Shown: in pieces, positions 5,360 to 26,231 of the stretch
How positions within the stretch are numbered: position 1 is the first letter of the stretch
Layout: every line of letters begins with the position of its first letter
Source of the DNA: a virus
Lineage: Duplodnaviria; Heunggongvirae; Uroviricota; Caudoviricetes
Strand: one strand, 5' to 3'
IMG/VR virus record: IMGVR_UViG_2541047774_000009
Length of the DNA stretch: 27,279 nt
Notes under the pieces: generated by a model
Told to the model about the DNA's origin: nothing
Seen by the model: only the letters and a program-made list of their open reading frames with translations
Databases searched by the model: none
Program-made: the position numbers and the translations under genes

Positions 5360-5653
5360 ATGAAAAAAATGTTGTTTTCTGCCGCTCTGGCAATGCTTAT
5401 TACAGGATGTGCTCAACAGACGTTTACTGTTGGAAACAAACCGACAGCAGTAACACCAAAGGAAACCATCACCCATCATTTCTTCGTTTCGGGAATTGGG
5501 CAGAAGAAAACTGTCGATGCAGCAAAAATTTGTGGTGGTGCAGAAAATGTGGTTAAAACAGAAACCCAGCAAACATTCGTAAATGGATTGCTCGGTTTCA
5601 TCACTTTTGGCATTTATACTCCGCTGGAAGCGCGGGTGTATTGCTCAAAATAA
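5360..5653 (+). CDS. bor: Bor lipoprotein (serum-resistance outer-membrane lipoprotein, 97 aa)
   Basis: MKKMLFSAALAMLITGCAQQTFTVGNKPTAVTPKETITHHFFVSGIGQKKTVDAAKICGGAENVVKTETQQTFVNGLLGFITFGIYTPLEARVYCSK closely matches lambda Bor; oriented opposite to lysis genes as in lambda. Confidence 0.9.
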   Translation: MKKMLFSAALAMLITGCAQQTFTVGNKPTAVTPKETITHHFFVSGIGQKKTVDAAKICGGAENVVKTETQQTFVNGLLGFITFGIYTPLEARVYCSK

Positions 5654-8677: not shown

Positions 8678-9769
8678 TCACAAAATTGTATTTGCTGATA
8701 ACATACTGATTTCCTGGATGGTCTGATTAAACCGCTCTGTCTCAAGCTCAACACCTAACGCCCGACGCCCCAGCGCCATTGCTGCTTTTATTGTGGAACC
8801 GGATCCCATAAAGAAATCAGCAACCAGATCGCCGGGTCGACTACTGGCATTGATTATTTGCCTGAGCATATCCGCCGGTTTCTCACACGGATGTTTACCC
8901 GGGTAGAACTGAACGGGTTTATGCATCCAGACATCGGTATAAGGCACGGAGACTGATACGGAGAAATAGCGCCGGAGAGATTTAAACTCATCCAGCAATT
9001 CAGAATATTTGCGATTCAGTGAATCATAAGATGCCACCAACTGGTGGTGTGGTTGTTCCAGTTGTTGTTCCTGAAACTTCTCTGCCGCTATACGGGAAAA
9101 CAGTGCCTGTAACTTCCGGTAGTCAGCCTCATTCGGCAACTGCCACTGACTGGCACCAAACCAGTGGGAAACCATATTTTTCTTACCTGTGGCTTCGGCA
9201 ATTTGTTTTGCCGTTATACCCAGTTCGGCACGAGCATCCCTGAAATACGATATCAGCGGTGCCATTATGTGCTGTTTGAGTTCCCTTTCTTTTGCCGCAT
9301 AGCCGTCACTTTTGCCGCGATATGGCCCCTGGTAATGTTCAGCAAACAGAACGCGCTCTGTGGCAGGAAAATATGCGCGCAGACTTTCTTTATTACACCC
9401 ATTCCAACGTCCGGACGGCTTCGCCCAGATGATATGGTTAAGCACGTTGAAACGTTCACGCATCATGATCTCAATATCAGATGCCAGGCGATGCCCACAG
9501 AACAGGTAAAGGCTTCCGGCTGGTTTCAGTACCCGCCAGAACTGGGCCAGACAGTGGTCCAGCCACTTCAGGTAATCTTCGTCCCCTTTCCACTGATTGT
9601 CCCAGCCGTTGGGCTTCACTTTGAAGTACGGCGGATCGGTAACAATCAGATCAATGGAGTTATCAGGCAGGGACTGAATAAAATGCAGGCAATCAGCGTT
9701 GATTAAATCAACACTGTTTATTTTTACAGTATTTTCATGGATCAGTAAGCGTAACTCTGGTAGGCTCAC
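8678..9769 (-). CDS. Orphan DNA methyltransferase, beta-class N6-adenine/N4-cytosine type (363 aa)
   Basis: Motif IV DPPY near N-terminus (LIVTDPPYF) and AdoMet motif I near C-terminus (DFFMGSGST): circularly permuted beta-class order; GTG start at 9769; no adjacent endonuclease gene. Confidence 0.8.
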   Translation of the reverse strand: MSLPELRLLIHENTVKINSVDLINADCLHFIQSLPDNSIDLIVTDPPYFKVKPNGWDNQWKGDEDYLKWLDHCLAQFWRVLKPAGSLYLFCGHRLASDIEIMMRERFNVLNHIIWAKPSGRWNGCNKESLRAYFPATERVLFAEHYQGPYRGKSDGYAAKERELKQHIMAPLISYFRDARAELGITAKQIAEATGKKNMVSHWFGASQWQLPNEADYRKLQALFSRIAAEKFQEQQLEQPHHQLVASYDSLNRKYSELLDEFKSLRRYFSVSVSVPYTDVWMHKPVQFYPGKHPCEKPADMLRQIINASSRPGDLVADFFMGSGSTIKAAMALGRRALGVELETERFNQTIQEISMLSANTIL

Positions 9770-10411: not shown

Positions 10412-11431
10412 TTGGATAAGTTTGATGAGATTCATGTAGACATTGAATCTGAGCAGCAAGCCTTCGATTTGCTTGAAAGCTATCTTGATGGTTATGGTTT
10501 ACCTGACAGTTTAAGTTTCAACGGATGGCCAAACCTTACCATCAGATTAACCGGTGAAAAATTCAACAGATCGCTAACACCTTCAGTTATGAAGGGATTT
10601 GTTGAAATGCAAGCTCAAATCAACAAATCATATGCCCTTGCCAAGTACGGTGTCCCTGACGTCCGCAAACTGACCAAAGAAGAACTTGATGCCCTAGAAA
10701 TAGAAGTTACGGTAGAACAGGGTTCTTCAATAGTAGAAATCAACATTGATGGCTTTTTAACCAAACTCACACAGGAACTTGTTGGTAAAATGAACGCAAC
10801 TGAGATCATGTTTACTGTTCTCGGCGCAGCAGTCATCTGGGGCGGAGTAACAGTATTTAAACGGTTCTTGGACAACCGTAAAGATATTCGCCTTGCAGAA
10901 ATTGCTAAGGATGGAGAGAAAGAACATCTCCGGACTATGCAGATCATGAGCGAGCAAGAAACTAAACGCCTGCGGGTTATTTCAGAAATGATTGCGGAAA
11001 AACCACTTCTCGATAACATGGACCGTATGTCGTATGACGCTAAAACCCAAATGGTCAAATCCTTTGTGCGTTCAGATAACGCTCAAATTGATGGCGTTAC
11101 TATTGATTCTGAAATGGCGAAAGAGTTGGTTACGAATGCTCGTAGACGTTCATCAGAAATGAGGATTGATGGTATTTACCGAATTGAAGAAGTCAATAAT
11201 ACTGACCCAGAGAGTTTCAAAGTTAAGGTCCGACGCGTAGATACCGACCAACGTCTAACCTGCGTAGTTCAGGATGTTTTCCTTGATGAATCCGGAAACA
11301 AAGAAGCATTGCAGCGAGCTGAGTGGGAAAGAAAGCCTGTACATTTGAGCATTAACGCAAAACACGTCGATGGTGACATTAAGTCAGCAGTAATTCTCTA
11401 TGTTCGAGATGTGGAACAAAAGCCCGAGTAA
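10412..11431 (+). CDS. Hypothetical membrane-anchored protein (339 aa, single central TM helix), lower-GC moron convergent with late genes
   Basis: TTG start with GAGGA 7 nt upstream; one hydrophobic helix (IMFTVLGAAVIWGGVTVF, residues about 133-150) separating two soluble domains; stop codon sits in the loop of a hairpin shared with the convergent Q gene; no catalytic motif recognised. Confidence 0.6.
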   Translation: MDKFDEIHVDIESEQQAFDLLESYLDGYGLPDSLSFNGWPNLTIRLTGEKFNRSLTPSVMKGFVEMQAQINKSYALAKYGVPDVRKLTKEELDALEIEVTVEQGSSIVEINIDGFLTKLTQELVGKMNATEIMFTVLGAAVIWGGVTVFKRFLDNRKDIRLAEIAKDGEKEHLRTMQIMSEQETKRLRVISEMIAEKPLLDNMDRMSYDAKTQMVKSFVRSDNAQIDGVTIDSEMAKELVTNARRRSSEMRIDGIYRIEEVNNTDPESFKVKVRRVDTDQRLTCVVQDVFLDESGNKEALQRAEWERKPVHLSINAKHVDGDIKSAVILYVRDVEQKPE

Positions 11432-11445: not shown

Positions 11446-11823
11446 TCAATCTTTAATTTCGGGGTCCATCTCTAGACTAATTTCCAGCATCGATAGGCAG
11501 CCATCAATAAACCCCTCAGCCATCTGTATCTCAATGCGTATTAGTTTCTCATCCTTTTTACGAGCCTTGGCGAGCTTTCTTTTAGAGATACCGTATAGGT
11601 AATGGGCAACAAGAAGCGAATGTTCGTCCGGCCTTTTTTGCCTTAGACGAGCAAGACAACCTTCAATAATTAATGCATCACTATCTGAACATGCCTGACG
11701 TGTTTTGCTTGTATAGGGAAGAAGCCCTTTAAACCCAGCAGCTATAGGAGAATAGTCTACTCCTGAACTATCACTCGCCGCCCATGCTCCCCAACGATCC
11801 AGAACCATTTGAATATCACGCAT
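11446..11823 (-). CDS. Late-gene antiterminator Q, phage-82/QuuD type (125 aa)
   Basis: MRDIQMVLDRWGAWAA...IAAGFKGL...C.D.DA.II.GC.ARL...LL..YY...KAEG.I.G.L..L.I.LEMD pattern matching QuuD/Q82 family; GGAGA RBS before ATG 11823. Confidence 0.8.
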   Translation of the reverse strand: MRDIQMVLDRWGAWAASDSSGVDYSPIAAGFKGLLPYTSKTRQACSDSDALIIEGCLARLRQKRPDEHSLLVAHYLYGISKRKLAKARKKDEKLIRIEIQMAEGFIDGCLSMLEISLEMDPEIKD

Positions 11824-11840
11824 CAACTTTCTCCACAAAA

Positions 11841-13666: not shown

Positions 13667-14056
13667 TCAGGCGGCTGCACCCGCCGTTTTCTCGTACTTA
13701 CTGATAGTGATCTCGACCTTCCCTTTCGGGATAACCGGTCCCCACTCCACCAGCATTCTTTTCACCTGTCTGTCGTCTTCCCACACACCCGCGTGGGTCA
13801 GGGCGTCAAACAGCGCCTTGTTATAGTTGTCCAGATCACGGATCCGGTTATCCGGCGGAAACAACACGATCTCCACTGAAGCAGGTGCCGACGTTGGTTT
13901 CGGCAGACGACGTAACTGCTCAACTATTGCTGCGCACGCCGCGCTCTGGAATTTTCGCCCCGCCGCGCTTATCAGGCTCTTACCAGCAAACGCCCCTTTG
14001 TTGGGGTGTCGCCAGTACGTGTTCACGCTGGGCGGAAAAGGCAGGATCAGCTTCAT
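13667..14056 (-). CDS. rusA: Holliday-junction resolvase RusA (129 aa)
   Basis: MKLILPFPPSVNTYWRH... with conserved RDLDN acidic motif, characteristic of RusA family; start overlaps upstream stop (ATGA). Confidence 0.85.
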   Translation of the reverse strand: MKLILPFPPSVNTYWRHPNKGAFAGKSLISAAGRKFQSAACAAIVEQLRRLPKPTSAPASVEIVLFPPDNRIRDLDNYNKALFDALTHAGVWEDDRQVKRMLVEWGPVIPKGKVEITISKYEKTAGAAA

Positions 14057-14379
14057 ACTTTCAGGTCCCTCTCATGTAACCAGTGGGTTGCACGCAGCCT
14101 TGCGTTTTCCTCACCGGCAAGCAGTGCGCGGATAATCCCGACCGCCTCGCTGTCGTCGTCCTTCACCGCGGTATGAAGCGTTATCCCCCGGGCCACGCCA
14201 CGCTTTATCGTGATGACGCCTTTTTTCTCCAGTGCGCGAAGATGCTCCACCGCTGCATTCACCGAACGGTATCCCAGCATGGTTGCCACCTCCTGATTGG
14301 TTGGCGGGAAGCCACGTTCTTTCTGATAAGAAATCAGCATATCCAGCACCTGCTGCTGGCATTGAGTTAACGTCGTCAT
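14053..14379 (-). CDS. LexA DNA-binding-domain-like protein (108 aa)
   Basis: LTQCQQQVLDMLISYQKERGFPPTNQEVATMLGYRSVNAAVEHLRALEKKGVI resembles the LexA N-terminal winged HTH; no peptidase domain. Confidence 0.55.
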   Translation of the reverse strand: MTTLTQCQQQVLDMLISYQKERGFPPTNQEVATMLGYRSVNAAVEHLRALEKKGVITIKRGVARGITLHTAVKDDDSEAVGIIRALLAGEENARLRATHWLHERDLKV

Positions 14380-15029
14380 GCCGCCATCTCCCTGACCAGT
14401 TTTTCTGCCTGCTGGCGAACCTGCGCCAGAAACGCCTCACCACATGCCTCAAGTTCATCGCGCCCGATGTAGCTGATTGCCGGGCCCTTCCAGGTCTTGT
14501 CGAAAACAGCAATAGCACCAGCGAAGAAAGCGCCTGTCGGCACCTGCTTCTCGTCCTTCGGGATAAACCAGGCAGGCAGTTCAAAACCAATACGCCCGCG
14601 AATAAAAGCAATATGATCTGCATCTTCCGGCCACCACACTTCGCTGGTGGCAGCTTTGATCAGGAAAACATAGCGTCCGCCCTTATCACGCATGGCACTG
14701 GCATGCTTCATGATGTAACGCATGCCGGTGATGTATTGCCCTTCATGCTGACTGGCGCGGCTGTACGGGGGATTACCAAAGGCAGCACCTTTAAGCTCCG
14801 CAAGACGTTCAGACCAGTCATGCGCCAGCGCGTTGTCTTCCGCAGTGTAATAAGCGGCACATTTGGCGTTATCACCATCAGTGAACAGATCCAGAACAAA
14901 CGGGCCAAACAGGGTGTTAATTCCCCAGAAAATGTTATCCGGCGTGCGCCACTGATCGCCCACTTCCTTCAGTTCATGGGCTGGTTTGTTCCGCAGCTCC
15001 ACCAGCGCCTGCCAATATTTATTACTCAT
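14376..15029 (-). CDS. Phage Dam-like DNA N6-adenine methyltransferase (217 aa from ATG 15029)
   Basis: NPPY catalytic motif (FGNPPYSRA); ATG at 15027-15029 overlaps upstream stop (TAATG); no endonuclease partner. Confidence 0.7.
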   Translation of the reverse strand: MSNKYWQALVELRNKPAHELKEVGDQWRTPDNIFWGINTLFGPFVLDLFTDGDNAKCAAYYTAEDNALAHDWSERLAELKGAAFGNPPYSRASQHEGQYITGMRYIMKHASAMRDKGGRYVFLIKAATSEVWWPEDADHIAFIRGRIGFELPAWFIPKDEKQVPTGAFFAGAIAVFDKTWKGPAISYIGRDELEACGEAFLAQVRQQAEKLVREMAA

Positions 15030-15523
15030 TAAGCCCCCACGTAATTCCCTGACAGATACCACTCTTCACCCGATGCAGCGCGCTTGCTGCTTTTCCGTAA
15101 GCACCGCTCACGACGCGCCAGAAAATTGTTTCGTTCTGGCTGGGAGTGGCTTTCACGGAATGCCGCCATCCACACCGTTGCAGCACGACGGTATAAGCCC
15201 CTGGACTCCAGTTCTTCCGCCTGGCGGGTCAGGCACAAAATCACCCGGGGATCGTTAGTGCCGACATAGAAATTGCGCACAGGTCTGGTTTCACGAACTG
15301 GTTGTGGTTCCGGCTCCTGCGCTCTCTCAGTCAGGCGCGGGAAATGTCTGCGTGTATCTCCTTCACAACGGTGAGCCACACGCCCACTCTGACGTAACTT
15401 GCTTGCTGACTGCAGAACGTGCAGCCGTGAGTAACCTGCAAAAGCATCCGCAATGTCTCCGGAAGTACACCCCGGATGGGCTTCAATGAATTTCTGAACT
15501 TCATTCAAAAGACTCATGATCAC
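15029..15523 (-). CDS. Hypothetical regulatory protein, N-terminal wHTH-like region and C-terminal PerC-like motif (164 aa)
   Basis: C-terminal LESRGLYRRAATVWMAAF resembles the PerC/Pch activator signature as recalled from memory; assignment tentative. Confidence 0.45.
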   Translation of the reverse strand: MIMSLLNEVQKFIEAHPGCTSGDIADAFAGYSRLHVLQSASKLRQSGRVAHRCEGDTRRHFPRLTERAQEPEPQPVRETRPVRNFYVGTNDPRVILCLTRQAEELESRGLYRRAATVWMAAFRESHSQPERNNFLARRERCLRKSSKRAASGEEWYLSGNYVGA

Positions 15524-16338
15524 CCCCTGAATCCTGCCGGGATCTGGCTGTAGTCCACGTTGTCGTAACTGGCTTTGAAGTACGGGTCCTCGCGTCTGGC
15601 TGCAGATACCGCAGGAACTTCCCAGGATTCTTCGAAATGACGATCCGGACCAAAGAACGTGACAGCCTGTTTCACAAATTGTGTGCCGCTGTTACCCATC
15701 GCAGATACCCAGCCCGCGTAGCGTTTCACACCTTCCAGCATGGTTTCGGGTTTTACCCCCTCATTCAAACGAGCTTTCCAGGCTTTGAAGGCTGCAGATT
15801 TTGAATTGCCACCAGCACGTTTGGGGTATGCCAGCCATGCCTGCTCAAACTCCGGAGAGTATTCCGGTCGGTTTGAACGAACTCGCACGGACTCATCAGC
15901 AGATGCACCAACAGCTATTGGTTCATTGACTGGTTCTTTGACTGGTTCAAAAGAGTGACTGGTTCTGGGTGAATCTCCTGCACCACCCCCTGGTGCAACT
16001 CCTGCACTACCTGGTGAATTTGCTGCACCAGATAGTGAATTATTTGCACTACCCCCTAGTGAATCTCCTGCACCATCAAGATGAAGGAGATAGATATTAC
16101 TTGAGTTACCTTTTTCACCTTTCCGGGTGACTTTTTTTACCAGCCCGGAATCACAAAGGGCCGCAATATGATTCATCACAGAACGTTTGCTAATCTCGCA
16201 CTGGTCAGCAATATGCTGGTAGCTGGGCCAGCACTCACCCTGATCGCTGGCATTATCAGCCAGCTTGATCAGAACCAGTTTTCGCAATGGATTACCCACT
16301 CGAATTTTCATCGCTTTAACCATCAGCTCCATACTCAT
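15520..16338 (-). CDS. Replication initiation protein, O-like with HTH_36-type N-terminal domain (272 aa)
   Basis: N-terminal VGNPLRKLVLIKLADNASDQGECWPSYQHIADQCEISKRSVMNHIAALCDSGLV typical of phage replication-initiator wHTH; iteron array inside the Gly/Ser/Ala-rich linker coding region; GGAGG RBS. Confidence 0.7.
   Translation of the reverse strand: MSMELMVKAMKIRVGNPLRKLVLIKLADNASDQGECWPSYQHIADQCEISKRSVMNHIAALCDSGLVKKVTRKGEKGNSSNIYLLHLDGAGDSLGGSANNSLSGAANSPGSAGVAPGGGAGDSPRTSHSFEPVKEPVNEPIAVGASADESVRVRSNRPEYSPEFEQAWLAYPKRAGGNSKSAAFKAWKARLNEGVKPETMLEGVKRYAGWVSAMGNSGTQFVKQAVTFFGPDRHFEESWEVPAVSAARREDPYFKASYDNVDYSQIPAGFRG
15925..16080. repeat. Iteron array (candidate replication origin) inside the initiator gene
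   Basis: Three TGACTGGTTC repeats (15927-15965) followed by five about 19-bp direct repeats of consensus TRGTGAATYTCCTGCACYA (15966-16075) at about 21-24 bp spacing. Confidence 0.6.
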
Positions 16339-24139: not shown

Positions 24140-24991
24140 ATGACTACACCAGTAATAAGTTTCATAAATATGAAAGGTGGGGTTGGTAAAACAACTTTAT
24201 GCGTCGGCATTGCTGAATATCTTGCAAACTTCATGGATAAAAAGGTATTAATTATCGATATTGACCCACAATTTAACGCTACACAGTCAATACTTAGTAA
24301 ATATGATCGAGTGAAAGAGTATATAGCTGATCACTTAGAAAATACAAAAACCATCAGACGAATATTCGAGACAAAATCAAGCTTAACGGGTAAAGTTCAG
24401 CAGGTCACTCCTGATGAAATTATCATCAAGATGTCAGAGCACTTAGATATGATTTTTGGTGATATTAATACAATATTTGATATTGAACAACCTGCGGCAA
24501 GATTACATAAGCTAAAACGCTTTATAGAAGAACATAAGCTTCGAGATATATATGACTTCATTTTGATCGATAGCCCACCAACCATTTCATTATTTACTGA
24601 TGCAGCTCTCGTTGCTTCAGATTATTATATTGTGCCAGTTAAAATTGACCACTACTCAATTTTAGGTGCGACAAGTCTTTTAAGCGTAATAGAAAACATT
24701 CAAGATAATTATGACCATAAAAACATTCAAAACCTTGGTTTTATTTATACTAATACCCTAGAAAATCTATCAAAAAAGACAAAAAAGCTAAAGACAGACT
24801 TTGAAAGTACTGAACCTTTTAATGAACTATACTTTTTTGATAACCAGTTGAAGTTTGTACAGGATTTGATGGTGGGTGGTAGAGGTAATATATCATCAAG
24901 TTATAAATCATCCAGAAAATATATCAAAGCGATTTGTGAAGAGTTTTTAAGTCGGATCCAAGAAGTGCAAACGGGGGGGGAAGATGAATAA
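24140..24991 (+). CDS. ParA/MinD-family P-loop ATPase (283 aa)
   Basis: Deviant Walker A MKGGVGKTT, IDIDPQFNATQ motif, ILIDSPPTISLF Walker B-like segment; AGAGGGA RBS; AT-rich. Confidence 0.85.
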   Translation: MTTPVISFINMKGGVGKTTLCVGIAEYLANFMDKKVLIIDIDPQFNATQSILSKYDRVKEYIADHLENTKTIRRIFETKSSLTGKVQQVTPDEIIIKMSEHLDMIFGDINTIFDIEQPAARLHKLKRFIEEHKLRDIYDFILIDSPPTISLFTDAALVASDYYIVPVKIDHYSILGATSLLSVIENIQDNYDHKNIQNLGFIYTNTLENLSKKTKKLKTDFESTEPFNELYFFDNQLKFVQDLMVGGRGNISSSYKSSRKYIKAICEEFLSRIQEVQTGGEDE

Positions 24992-25397
24992 AAATAGTAA
25001 CAACCTCGAATTATTACAGACATTGGTTTATAAGAAGCCCTCGTCAAAAGAAGCGTTTATTGGTTTGATAACAATAGCAATCTATTCTAGGGAAATTTTT
25101 GTTAAAAATGAAGATGCAGCAGAATTCGTAAAAAATGTATTTGGATTAAGTTTCTTAGACTACGTCATCAAGTCAAGAACTTTATTATGCGCTAGACTTA
25201 CCCGTAATCTTGTAAATATGAGCGAGAGAGACATTAAAGAATGCATATATAAAGCATCAGAGTATTTTAAAACTGACAAATTTATTATTGGATATAATGA
25301 AAACTCACTTACTTTTAAAAAAAGTAACGTCAAACGTAATGCAAATCGAGATGTAGGTACGTGGATTAATGCTCTTTTGAAGAAGGATAGAAAATAA
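24984..25397 (+). CDS. Hypothetical protein (137 aa), second gene of ParA-like operon
   Basis: Start overlaps ParA stop by 8 nt; Lys/Asn-rich; no family recognised. Confidence 0.5.
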   Translation: MNKNSNNLELLQTLVYKKPSSKEAFIGLITIAIYSREIFVKNEDAAEFVKNVFGLSFLDYVIKSRTLLCARLTRNLVNMSERDIKECIYKASEYFKTDKFIIGYNENSLTFKKSNVKRNANRDVGTWINALLKKDRK

Positions 25398-26062
25398 TGC
25401 TTCAAAGAGACCCACATGGATTTAGAAAAGACGTAAAAGAATTTATCACAATGATAAAATCATTTCAGGTCGATATTCGCACCGAAAACAATCTTACATC
25501 GGCTTATAAACATGTGCTTTTTCTGGAGTTTATCCATAACTCACATCCAGAAATAAGTCACAAAACCTTTATAAAAAGTATTATTTATGATGTTTTAAGT
25601 TCAATTACAGCGATACTTCATAAACGAGAGCGATATCTTCATCTTAATTTTCGCTCAATGATTGAACATCTTGCACGTATATCCTTACAAAAAGTTGATA
25701 ACGGGGGGGATTTCGATATTACAATTAGAACTCTTGATTTCGAGAATCTTAAATCTACCAACACTGATGAAAACTGGGCGTACATGCATTCACAGTATAA
25801 ACAAGCATGTGGCTGGTTACACTCATCATCTAAAGTTAAATTAAATATCACAGCATCATTTCCAGATTTATTAAAGTCTGATTCAAAAAGTAATGCAGCT
25901 AAACTGTCAACCCATTTGCAAAAGATGACTACCGAAATGTTAAAGATTTTTTTTAACTACTATGTTGATGAGATTCAAACTTCTTTTTACCGCACACGGG
26001 GAGAAATGAGGTATGTGCTTGGCAACCATAACTTCGAATATTTTTTAAGCAAGAATCCATAA
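25397..26062 (+). CDS. Hypothetical protein (221 aa), third gene of ParA-like operon
   Basis: ATG overlaps upstream stop (TAATG), AAGGA RBS; no family recognised. Confidence 0.5.
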   Translation: MLQRDPHGFRKDVKEFITMIKSFQVDIRTENNLTSAYKHVLFLEFIHNSHPEISHKTFIKSIIYDVLSSITAILHKRERYLHLNFRSMIEHLARISLQKVDNGGDFDITIRTLDFENLKSTNTDENWAYMHSQYKQACGWLHSSSKVKLNITASFPDLLKSDSKSNAAKLSTHLQKMTTEMLKIFFNYYVDEIQTSFYRTRGEMRYVLGNHNFEYFLSKNP

Positions 26063-26184: not shown

Positions 26185-26231
26185 AAATTCTCCATCGGTG
26201 ATTACCAGAGTCATCCGATGAAGTCCTAAGA

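Follow-up and report, generated by a model that had tools for sequence, protein, structure and literature searches.

An orphan PF05869 adenine methyltransferase in the nin-equivalent region of a lambdoid Escherichia coli prophage that also carries a beta-class methyltransferase

The window analyzed here, a viral DNA stretch of 27,279 nucleotides (IMG/VR record IMGVR_UViG_2541047774_000009), is a lambdoid prophage that is 99.6% identical to one in Escherichia coli GF47 and related poultry isolates. Its minus strand carries, in this order, cI/cro/cII-like genes, an HTH replication gene, yfdN/PerC, a methyltransferase gene, a LexA-domain gene, rusA, KilA-N, DUF968, and the antiterminator gene Q (Table 1). 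Past Q follow a plus-strand open reading frame (ORF), a gene for a beta-class methyltransferase, the holin, lysozyme, and Rz genes, then iss, and then terminase. The iss gene encodes the bor-type increased serum survival lipoprotein, and its presence fits the avian/poultry E. coli strains in which the closest matches to the prophage lie. The plus-strand ORF past Q encodes 339 amino acids (aa), and matches PHROG 6191 (unknown function) only, with no Pfam or PADLOC hit; since phage 1720a-02 is without this ORF at that position, it looks like a moron inserted at the site taken by stx in Stx phages. Immediately beyond the integrase, the window has a gene of the ParA family and two genes for hypothetical proteins. 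Similarity to GF47, the best-matching genome, ends at about position 26186, where GF47 enters a P2-like prophage (ogr, D, and tail genes), which places the prophage in a variable, prophage-rich spot.

Table 1. Features of the prophage discussed in the text, with their positions in the 27,279-nucleotide window
Feature	Positions	Strand	Remarks
iss	5360-5653	+	Between lysis genes and terminase
Beta-class orphan methyltransferase (PF01555)	8678-9742	-	DPPY near N-terminus, FxGxG near C-terminus
339-aa ORF	10412-11431	+	Opposite strand, between Q and late-region methyltransferase
Antiterminator Q	11446-11838	-	End of early-right operon holding the PF05869 methyltransferase
LexA DNA-binding-domain-only protein (108 aa)	14053-14379	-	Downstream of the PF05869 methyltransferase
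Phage N-6-adenine methyltransferase	14376-15029	-	217 aa; PF05869/TIGR01712
yfdN (PerC family, 164 aa)	15029-15523	-	Upstream of the PF05869 methyltransferase
Replication-initiation-like HTH/DnaD_N protein	15520-16338	-	Start of nin-equivalent stretch, early-right operon
ParA-family gene and two hypothetical genes	24140-26062	+	Just beyond integrase

The methyltransferase gene of the minus-strand cluster, referred to below as the nin-region gene, is an intact ORF with an ATG at 15029 and a TGA stop ending at 14376. Its coordinates coincide with those of the RefSeq coding sequence WP_021530632.1 ("phage N-6-adenine-methyltransferase") of the near-identical prophage in E. coli GF47. The gene lies between the replication gene and Q, that is, in the nin-equivalent region. 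Its ATG, which is preceded by a GGGGG Shine-Dalgarno-like run, overlaps the TAA stop of yfdN (TAATG), and its own TGA overlaps the ATG of the LexA-domain gene (ATGA); these overlapping stop and start codons show that the methyltransferase belongs to a compact operon, the genes of which are probably coupled in translation, and the overlap with yfdN suggests coupling of that pair. The neighboring genes encode PerC/YfdN, LexA-domain, RusA, KilA-N, and DUF968 proteins; in Pfam and PADLOC searches, none of them significantly matched a restriction enzyme or a PADLOC defense model, and the enzyme is therefore an orphan.

The LexA-domain protein encoded downstream consists of a winged-helix DNA-binding domain without the peptidase domain. 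In-frame fusions of the methyltransferase with the LexA-domain gene were found in a few E. coli assemblies (P0017, P0019, and P0081). The LexA-domain protein was considered as an obligate partner of the methyltransferase and rejected, the E. coli fusions being sporadic, single-assembly events. In Salmonella, Cronobacter, and Enterobacter, the homologues have C-terminal extensions that bear no relation to the LexA-domain protein, and a Salmonella phage homologue is without a LexA-domain neighbor.

In a Pfam profile search, the nin-region protein matched PF05869, "DNA N-6-adenine-methyltransferase (Dam)," with an E value of 9.7e-46 (156 bits against a cutoff of 28.1). It scored 255.6 bits against the NCBIfam equivalog TIGR01712, "phage N-6-adenine-methyltransferase" (curated cutoff, 97.05). 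With these scores, the family match is far beyond chance. The PADLOC model MTase_II PDLC03263 covers the protein from end to end (1-217 of 217 positions). Motif X (DQWRTP) was located at residues 25 to 30, motif I (LDLFTD) at residues 46 to 51, and the catalytic NPPY, which is conserved across the PF05869 family, at residues 86 to 89, with S90 next to it. The catalytic residues proved intact on alignment (alignments A1 to A3), and the family-invariant W27, T29, P30, D47, N54, R146, and F149 are likewise all retained. These results confirm that the product is an orphan NPPY adenine methyltransferase, real and correctly placed in the nin region, as the initial annotation had proposed. We are highly confident that the ORF is a member of PF05869/TIGR01712 with a predicted DNA m6A activity.

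An AlphaFold2 model of the protein, built on a 27-sequence alignment (mean pLDDT of 94.9 and pTM of 0.90), consists of a single Rossmann-type domain plus a long C-terminal helix (residues 190 to 216). The linear order of motifs X, I, and IV, followed by the remaining core strands, is unpermuted and of the gamma type, and the strand order of the model agrees with it; this class assignment was made by comparison with the motifs of M.TaqI. The separate C-terminal recognition domain of classical gamma enzymes is absent from the model, in which that one helix follows the last core strand. The earlier description of the enzyme as "gamma/Dam-like" thus holds for the motif order and fails for a relation to the host Dam. 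E. coli Dam and T4 Dam are alpha-class enzymes (PF02086) in which a recognition domain separates FxGxG from DPPY, whereas the nin-region protein has PF05869 as its sole Pfam match, with no match to PF02086 (MethyltransfD12), and its roughly 35 residues between motif I and NPPY leave no room for a recognition domain. Neither Dam nor T4 Dam structures were among the top 50 Foldseek matches to the model. The chemistry of N6-adenine methylation, with (D/N)PPY, is common to these enzymes and the nin-region enzyme, and a GATC target possibly is as well; "Dam-like" is here a family name only, the host Dam being of a different class. The nearest fold in the PDB was that of the methyltransferase domain of PCIF1/CAPAM, the eukaryotic enzyme that writes m6Am at the mRNA cap (Foldseek E value of 2e-4, probability of 1.0), and the structural neighbors there were adenine-N6 methyltransferase domains. 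In BFVD, phage N6A methyltransferases came first and giant-virus PCIF1 homologues next. In sequence searches of the PDB, neither the single sequence nor a profile retrieved a solved PF05869 structure.

Several other adenine methyltransferases were considered as relatives and rejected. Hia5/Hin1523 are alpha-class enzymes in which DPPY follows the recognition domain, and M.EcoGIX (SAY) is a plasmid-borne, single-strand-specific enzyme. M.EcoGV and M.EcoPA8orf6770P-PNB-2 belong to the MT-A70 family, which is marked by PF05063 together with a DPPW motif, neither of which the nin-region protein has. PA8 gp5 matched PF05063 (MT-A70) and showed no similarity to the nin-region ORF.

The nin-region gene is already known, very common, and routinely annotated. 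Its DNA is present in 2120 of the 5426 complete E. coli genomes (~39%), mostly at 95 to 99% identity. Annotated copies (WP_021530632.1 type), several of which bear the name dam, are present in phages SfV, SfII, cdtI, mEp460, and 1720a-02 and in Stx2a-, Stx2c-, and Stx2k-converting phages; their proteins have the same 217-aa length and are 97.7 to 99.5% identical to the nin-region protein. These copies have the same neighbors, with yfdN/PerC upstream and the LexA-domain gene and rusA downstream; nothing of substance differs between any of these phage copies and the nin-region gene, and they are the same gene. Copies in inducible, plaque-forming phages are 98 to 99.5% identical, and recent isolates able to form plaques on ECOR13 or E. 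coli C carry the gene at 97.7 to 99.5% identity. Homologues with 64 to 88% identity were found in phages or prophages of Salmonella, Cronobacter, Klebsiella, Yersinia, Hafnia, Citrobacter, and Providencia, and the catalytic motif is kept in those from phages of the first six genera. Assemblies commonly contain truncated or fused copies.

Members of the subfamily are fused to a phosphoadenosine phosphosulfate (PAPS) reductase domain in both orders (P0128 and P0143) and to C5-cytosine methyltransferases (P0127, P0129, and P0133). RefSeq phage records NC_019716, NC_003444, NC_009514, NC_049941, NC_004313, and others label the stand-alone gene "phosphoadenosine phosphosulfate reductase," a mislabel that follows from the PAPS-reductase fusions; its likely source is PHROG 33262, a 495-position family built on PAPS-reductase/methyltransferase fusion proteins. 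Salmonella, Cronobacter, and Atlantibacter homologues are 285 to 297 aa long (P0043, P0085, and P0132; L006:4001-4894, of the Salmonella phage 118970_sal3/ST64B sb44 type) and carry a C-terminal extension of ~70 to 85 aa with a conserved K..IN..WLERM...EI and no Pfam match. Enterobacter homologues are 322 aa long, and their C-terminal extension is a different one. In the Salmonella protein P0001 (252 aa), the IMKHASAMRDKGG...EDADHI segment forms an internal 35-aa tandem repeat, and in P0036 (236 aa) DENAKCE is repeated internally; these short tandem duplications may be assembly artifacts or real variants.

The second methyltransferase gene, here called the late-region gene, lies downstream of Q and before the lysis genes. 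Its product matched PF01555 (E value of 5e-42), with TDPPYF and FMGSGS as the forms of its two motifs, and no significant similarity was found between the two methyltransferases of the prophage. The second enzyme was thus rightly described at the outset as beta class, unrelated to the first, and encoded in the late region. A promoter/terminator scan from Q to this gene found weak consensus matches only, including a terminator-like hairpin at 10233-10221 (minus strand), and hints at a late-operon placement. The late-region enzyme is 83.5% identical to the methyltransferase of phage phiP27, 82% identical to that of phage 1720a-02, and 64% identical to PhiOS31_p25 of a Serratia phage, and its gene, like theirs, is located between Q and the lysis cassette. 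The paper on M.EcoGII calls the 1720a-02 methyltransferase "very similar" to M.EcoGII, and the link of the late-region enzyme to M.EcoGII itself rests on that statement, via 1720a-02. Judged by its sequence, the late-region enzyme is a member of the M.EcoGI/M.EcoGII/PhiOS31_p25 clade. PhiOS31_p25 has been shown experimentally to have an extremely relaxed specificity, and tested members of the M.EcoGII/PhiOS31_p25 clade methylated adenine in almost any context.

The late-region gene was found in 1266 of the 5426 complete E. coli genomes. Of the 60 phage records listed for the nin-region gene, at least 37 have the late-region gene as well; 60 listed records per gene were compared, and the count is a lower bound that leaves out 28 further records with the late-region gene. 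Each gene was also found without the other among phages, and this separate occurrence speaks against an obligate functional link between the two. Their combination is nothing unusual and is common in sequenced lambdoid and Stx phages.

Four characterized PF05869 enzymes, which are 24 to 40% identical to the nin-region protein, all methylate GATC. Three of them, M.EcoVT2Dam (VT2-Sakai orf32), T1 Dam, and HP1 Dam, are cited in the literature as GATC methyltransferases, and we confirmed them as PF05869. They have motif X, motif I, NPPYS, and orphan status in common with the nin-region enzyme, and M.EcoVT2Dam also has its nin-region position; however, they are only 24 to 31% identical to it, are without the 11-aa insertion after NPPYS and without the C-terminal helix, and have a different beta6-beta7 loop. 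The fourth, PamA of the Staphylococcus aureus mPhi11 prophage, is a protein of 141 aa that ends in Q141, with NPPY at residues 64 to 67; phage 52A ORF032, whose architecture equals that of PamA, was confirmed as PF05869. PamA renders S. aureus DNA DpnI sensitive, and NPPY mutants lose this activity. A resident S. aureus prophage gave little methylation by PamA unless the gene was constitutively expressed. The PamA gene directly follows replication genes, and PamA is an orphan enzyme with NPPY, as is the nin-region enzyme, whereas the PamA type is ~36 to 40% identical to it over the core only, is without the insertion, and has a Gram-positive host.

The whole subfamily to which the nin-region protein belongs carries the 11-residue insertion right after NPPYSR (about residues 92 to 102, modeled as a beta hairpin at residues 93 to 101), and its beta6-beta7 connection is longer and different. 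Both features are absent from all four GATC enzymes. In the model, the hairpin insertion and the beta6-beta7 loop lie near the expected binding sites of the DNA and the flipped base. A search of the accessible literature found no experimentally determined target for any insertion-bearing member of the subfamily, including the SfV- and Stx2-type copies. The frequency of GATC across the window was unremarkable (84 sites; observed/expected ratio of 0.71, similar to that of other palindromes) and favors neither side. Because of the low identity (24 to 40%) and the insertion beside the active site, GATC is only the best guess at the target; by analogy with the characterized enzymes, we put it somewhat above even chances.

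By family precedent, the nin-region enzyme would be a DNA adenine methyltransferase with GATC as its target and would be mostly silent in the lysogen. We infer that it would be active as a stand-alone, S-adenosylmethionine (SAM)-dependent DNA N6-adenine methyltransferase with a minimal Rossmann fold and the motif order X-I-IV-VIII, in which NPPY would hold the flipped adenine and the region of the invariant Asp47 would bind SAM. Since it is a gene of the early-right (pR-type) operon and its translation appears to be coupled, it is probably silent in the lysogen and expressed early, soon after induction or infection. The enzyme would then methylate replicating phage DNA, most likely at GATC, and would act as a Dam mimic, keeping the fast-replicating phage DNA fully methylated when the host Dam is limiting or absent. 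The M.EcoGII-like enzyme of the late region would probably add broad, late adenine methylation before packaging. We consider this account of early methylation by a Dam mimic, taken as a whole, to be reasonably probable, although an extra GATC enzyme would be redundant for restriction escape if the late enzyme is truly nonspecific.

The alternative that survives best is that the nin-region protein is an active DNA adenine methyltransferase with a target other than GATC, either another short motif or a relaxed specificity set by the hairpin insertion. The insertion and the altered beta6-beta7 loop, conserved in the subfamily and missing from the four GATC enzymes, speak for such a target, as does the model, which has no recognition domain at all. 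Phage-borne adenine methyltransferases of relaxed specificity are known in other classes, and the fusions of the subfamily to C5-cytosine methyltransferases suggest a role in multispecificity protection. However, GATC is methylated by every PF05869 member tested, and although ~39% of E. coli genomes carry the gene, the methylome literature examined assigns no extra motif to such prophage orphans, a result that silence in lysogens would explain equally well. We regard a non-GATC target as a possibility well behind GATC; if true, the phage would gain a second pattern of protection, in line with the proposal of the initial annotation.

In a broader form, this alternative holds that the insertion-bearing subfamily as such is not a GATC Dam mimic and, by virtue of the extra hairpin beside the NPPY loop, acts on another motif, on replication intermediates or single-stranded DNA, or even, in view of the PCIF1/CAPAM-like fold, on RNA. 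We think this unlikely. If it were true, the prophage would have a two-stage adenine methylation, by an early nin-region enzyme and by a late, nonspecific enzyme after Q.

Much more improbable is a protein that acts mainly on a substrate other than DNA, namely, RNA, or that depends on a partner, the LexA-type winged-helix protein or YfdN. The closest solved structures are those of the RNA cap enzyme PCIF1/CAPAM, with the giant-virus PCIF1 homologues in BFVD, but the TM-scores of the model to CAPAM are only ~0.45 to 0.5, and PF05869 enzymes methylate DNA in vivo when produced on their own. A published precedent exists in the Stx-phage "DNA adenine methyltransferase" M.EcoPA8orf6770P, which together with PNB-2 forms a two-subunit 16S rRNA methyltransferase; it is an MT-A70 enzyme, however, without similarity to the nin-region protein. 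The translational coupling to two small DNA-binding-type proteins would suit a partner, whereas the sporadic nature of the LexA-gene fusions and the homologues of other genera, which have no LexA neighbor or have unrelated C-terminal extensions, argue against one. It is equally improbable that the gene is carried along in a mosaic prophage module without activity or function, for, although the two methyltransferase genes assort independently among phages and truncated and fused copies abound in assemblies, the full-length ORF keeps every invariant residue and has a confident structure prediction, and homologues across the phages of six other enterobacterial genera keep the catalytic motif at 64 to 88% aa identity.

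The initial annotation had read the two methyltransferases of the prophage as two distinct specificities, probably directed against different host restriction systems. This inference is only partly supported; it is not the natural reading once the late-region enzyme falls into the nonspecific M.EcoGII/PhiOS31_p25 clade, and the place of that enzyme in the clade weakens the idea. If nonspecific, like the tested members of its clade, the late-region enzyme would cover every site that m6A can block, so that timing or Dam-type functions would explain the nin-region enzyme better. A difference in timing, between an early and a late operon, is a better fit to the two enzymes than two restriction systems are.

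As it stands, the finding matters little, since it concerns a routine prophage methyltransferase in a common pairing with an M.EcoGII-like enzyme. The target of this abundant subfamily bears on how phages escape restriction and on how E. coli methylomes are read, and it would show whether methylation by these phages duplicates that of the host Dam or follows a new pattern.
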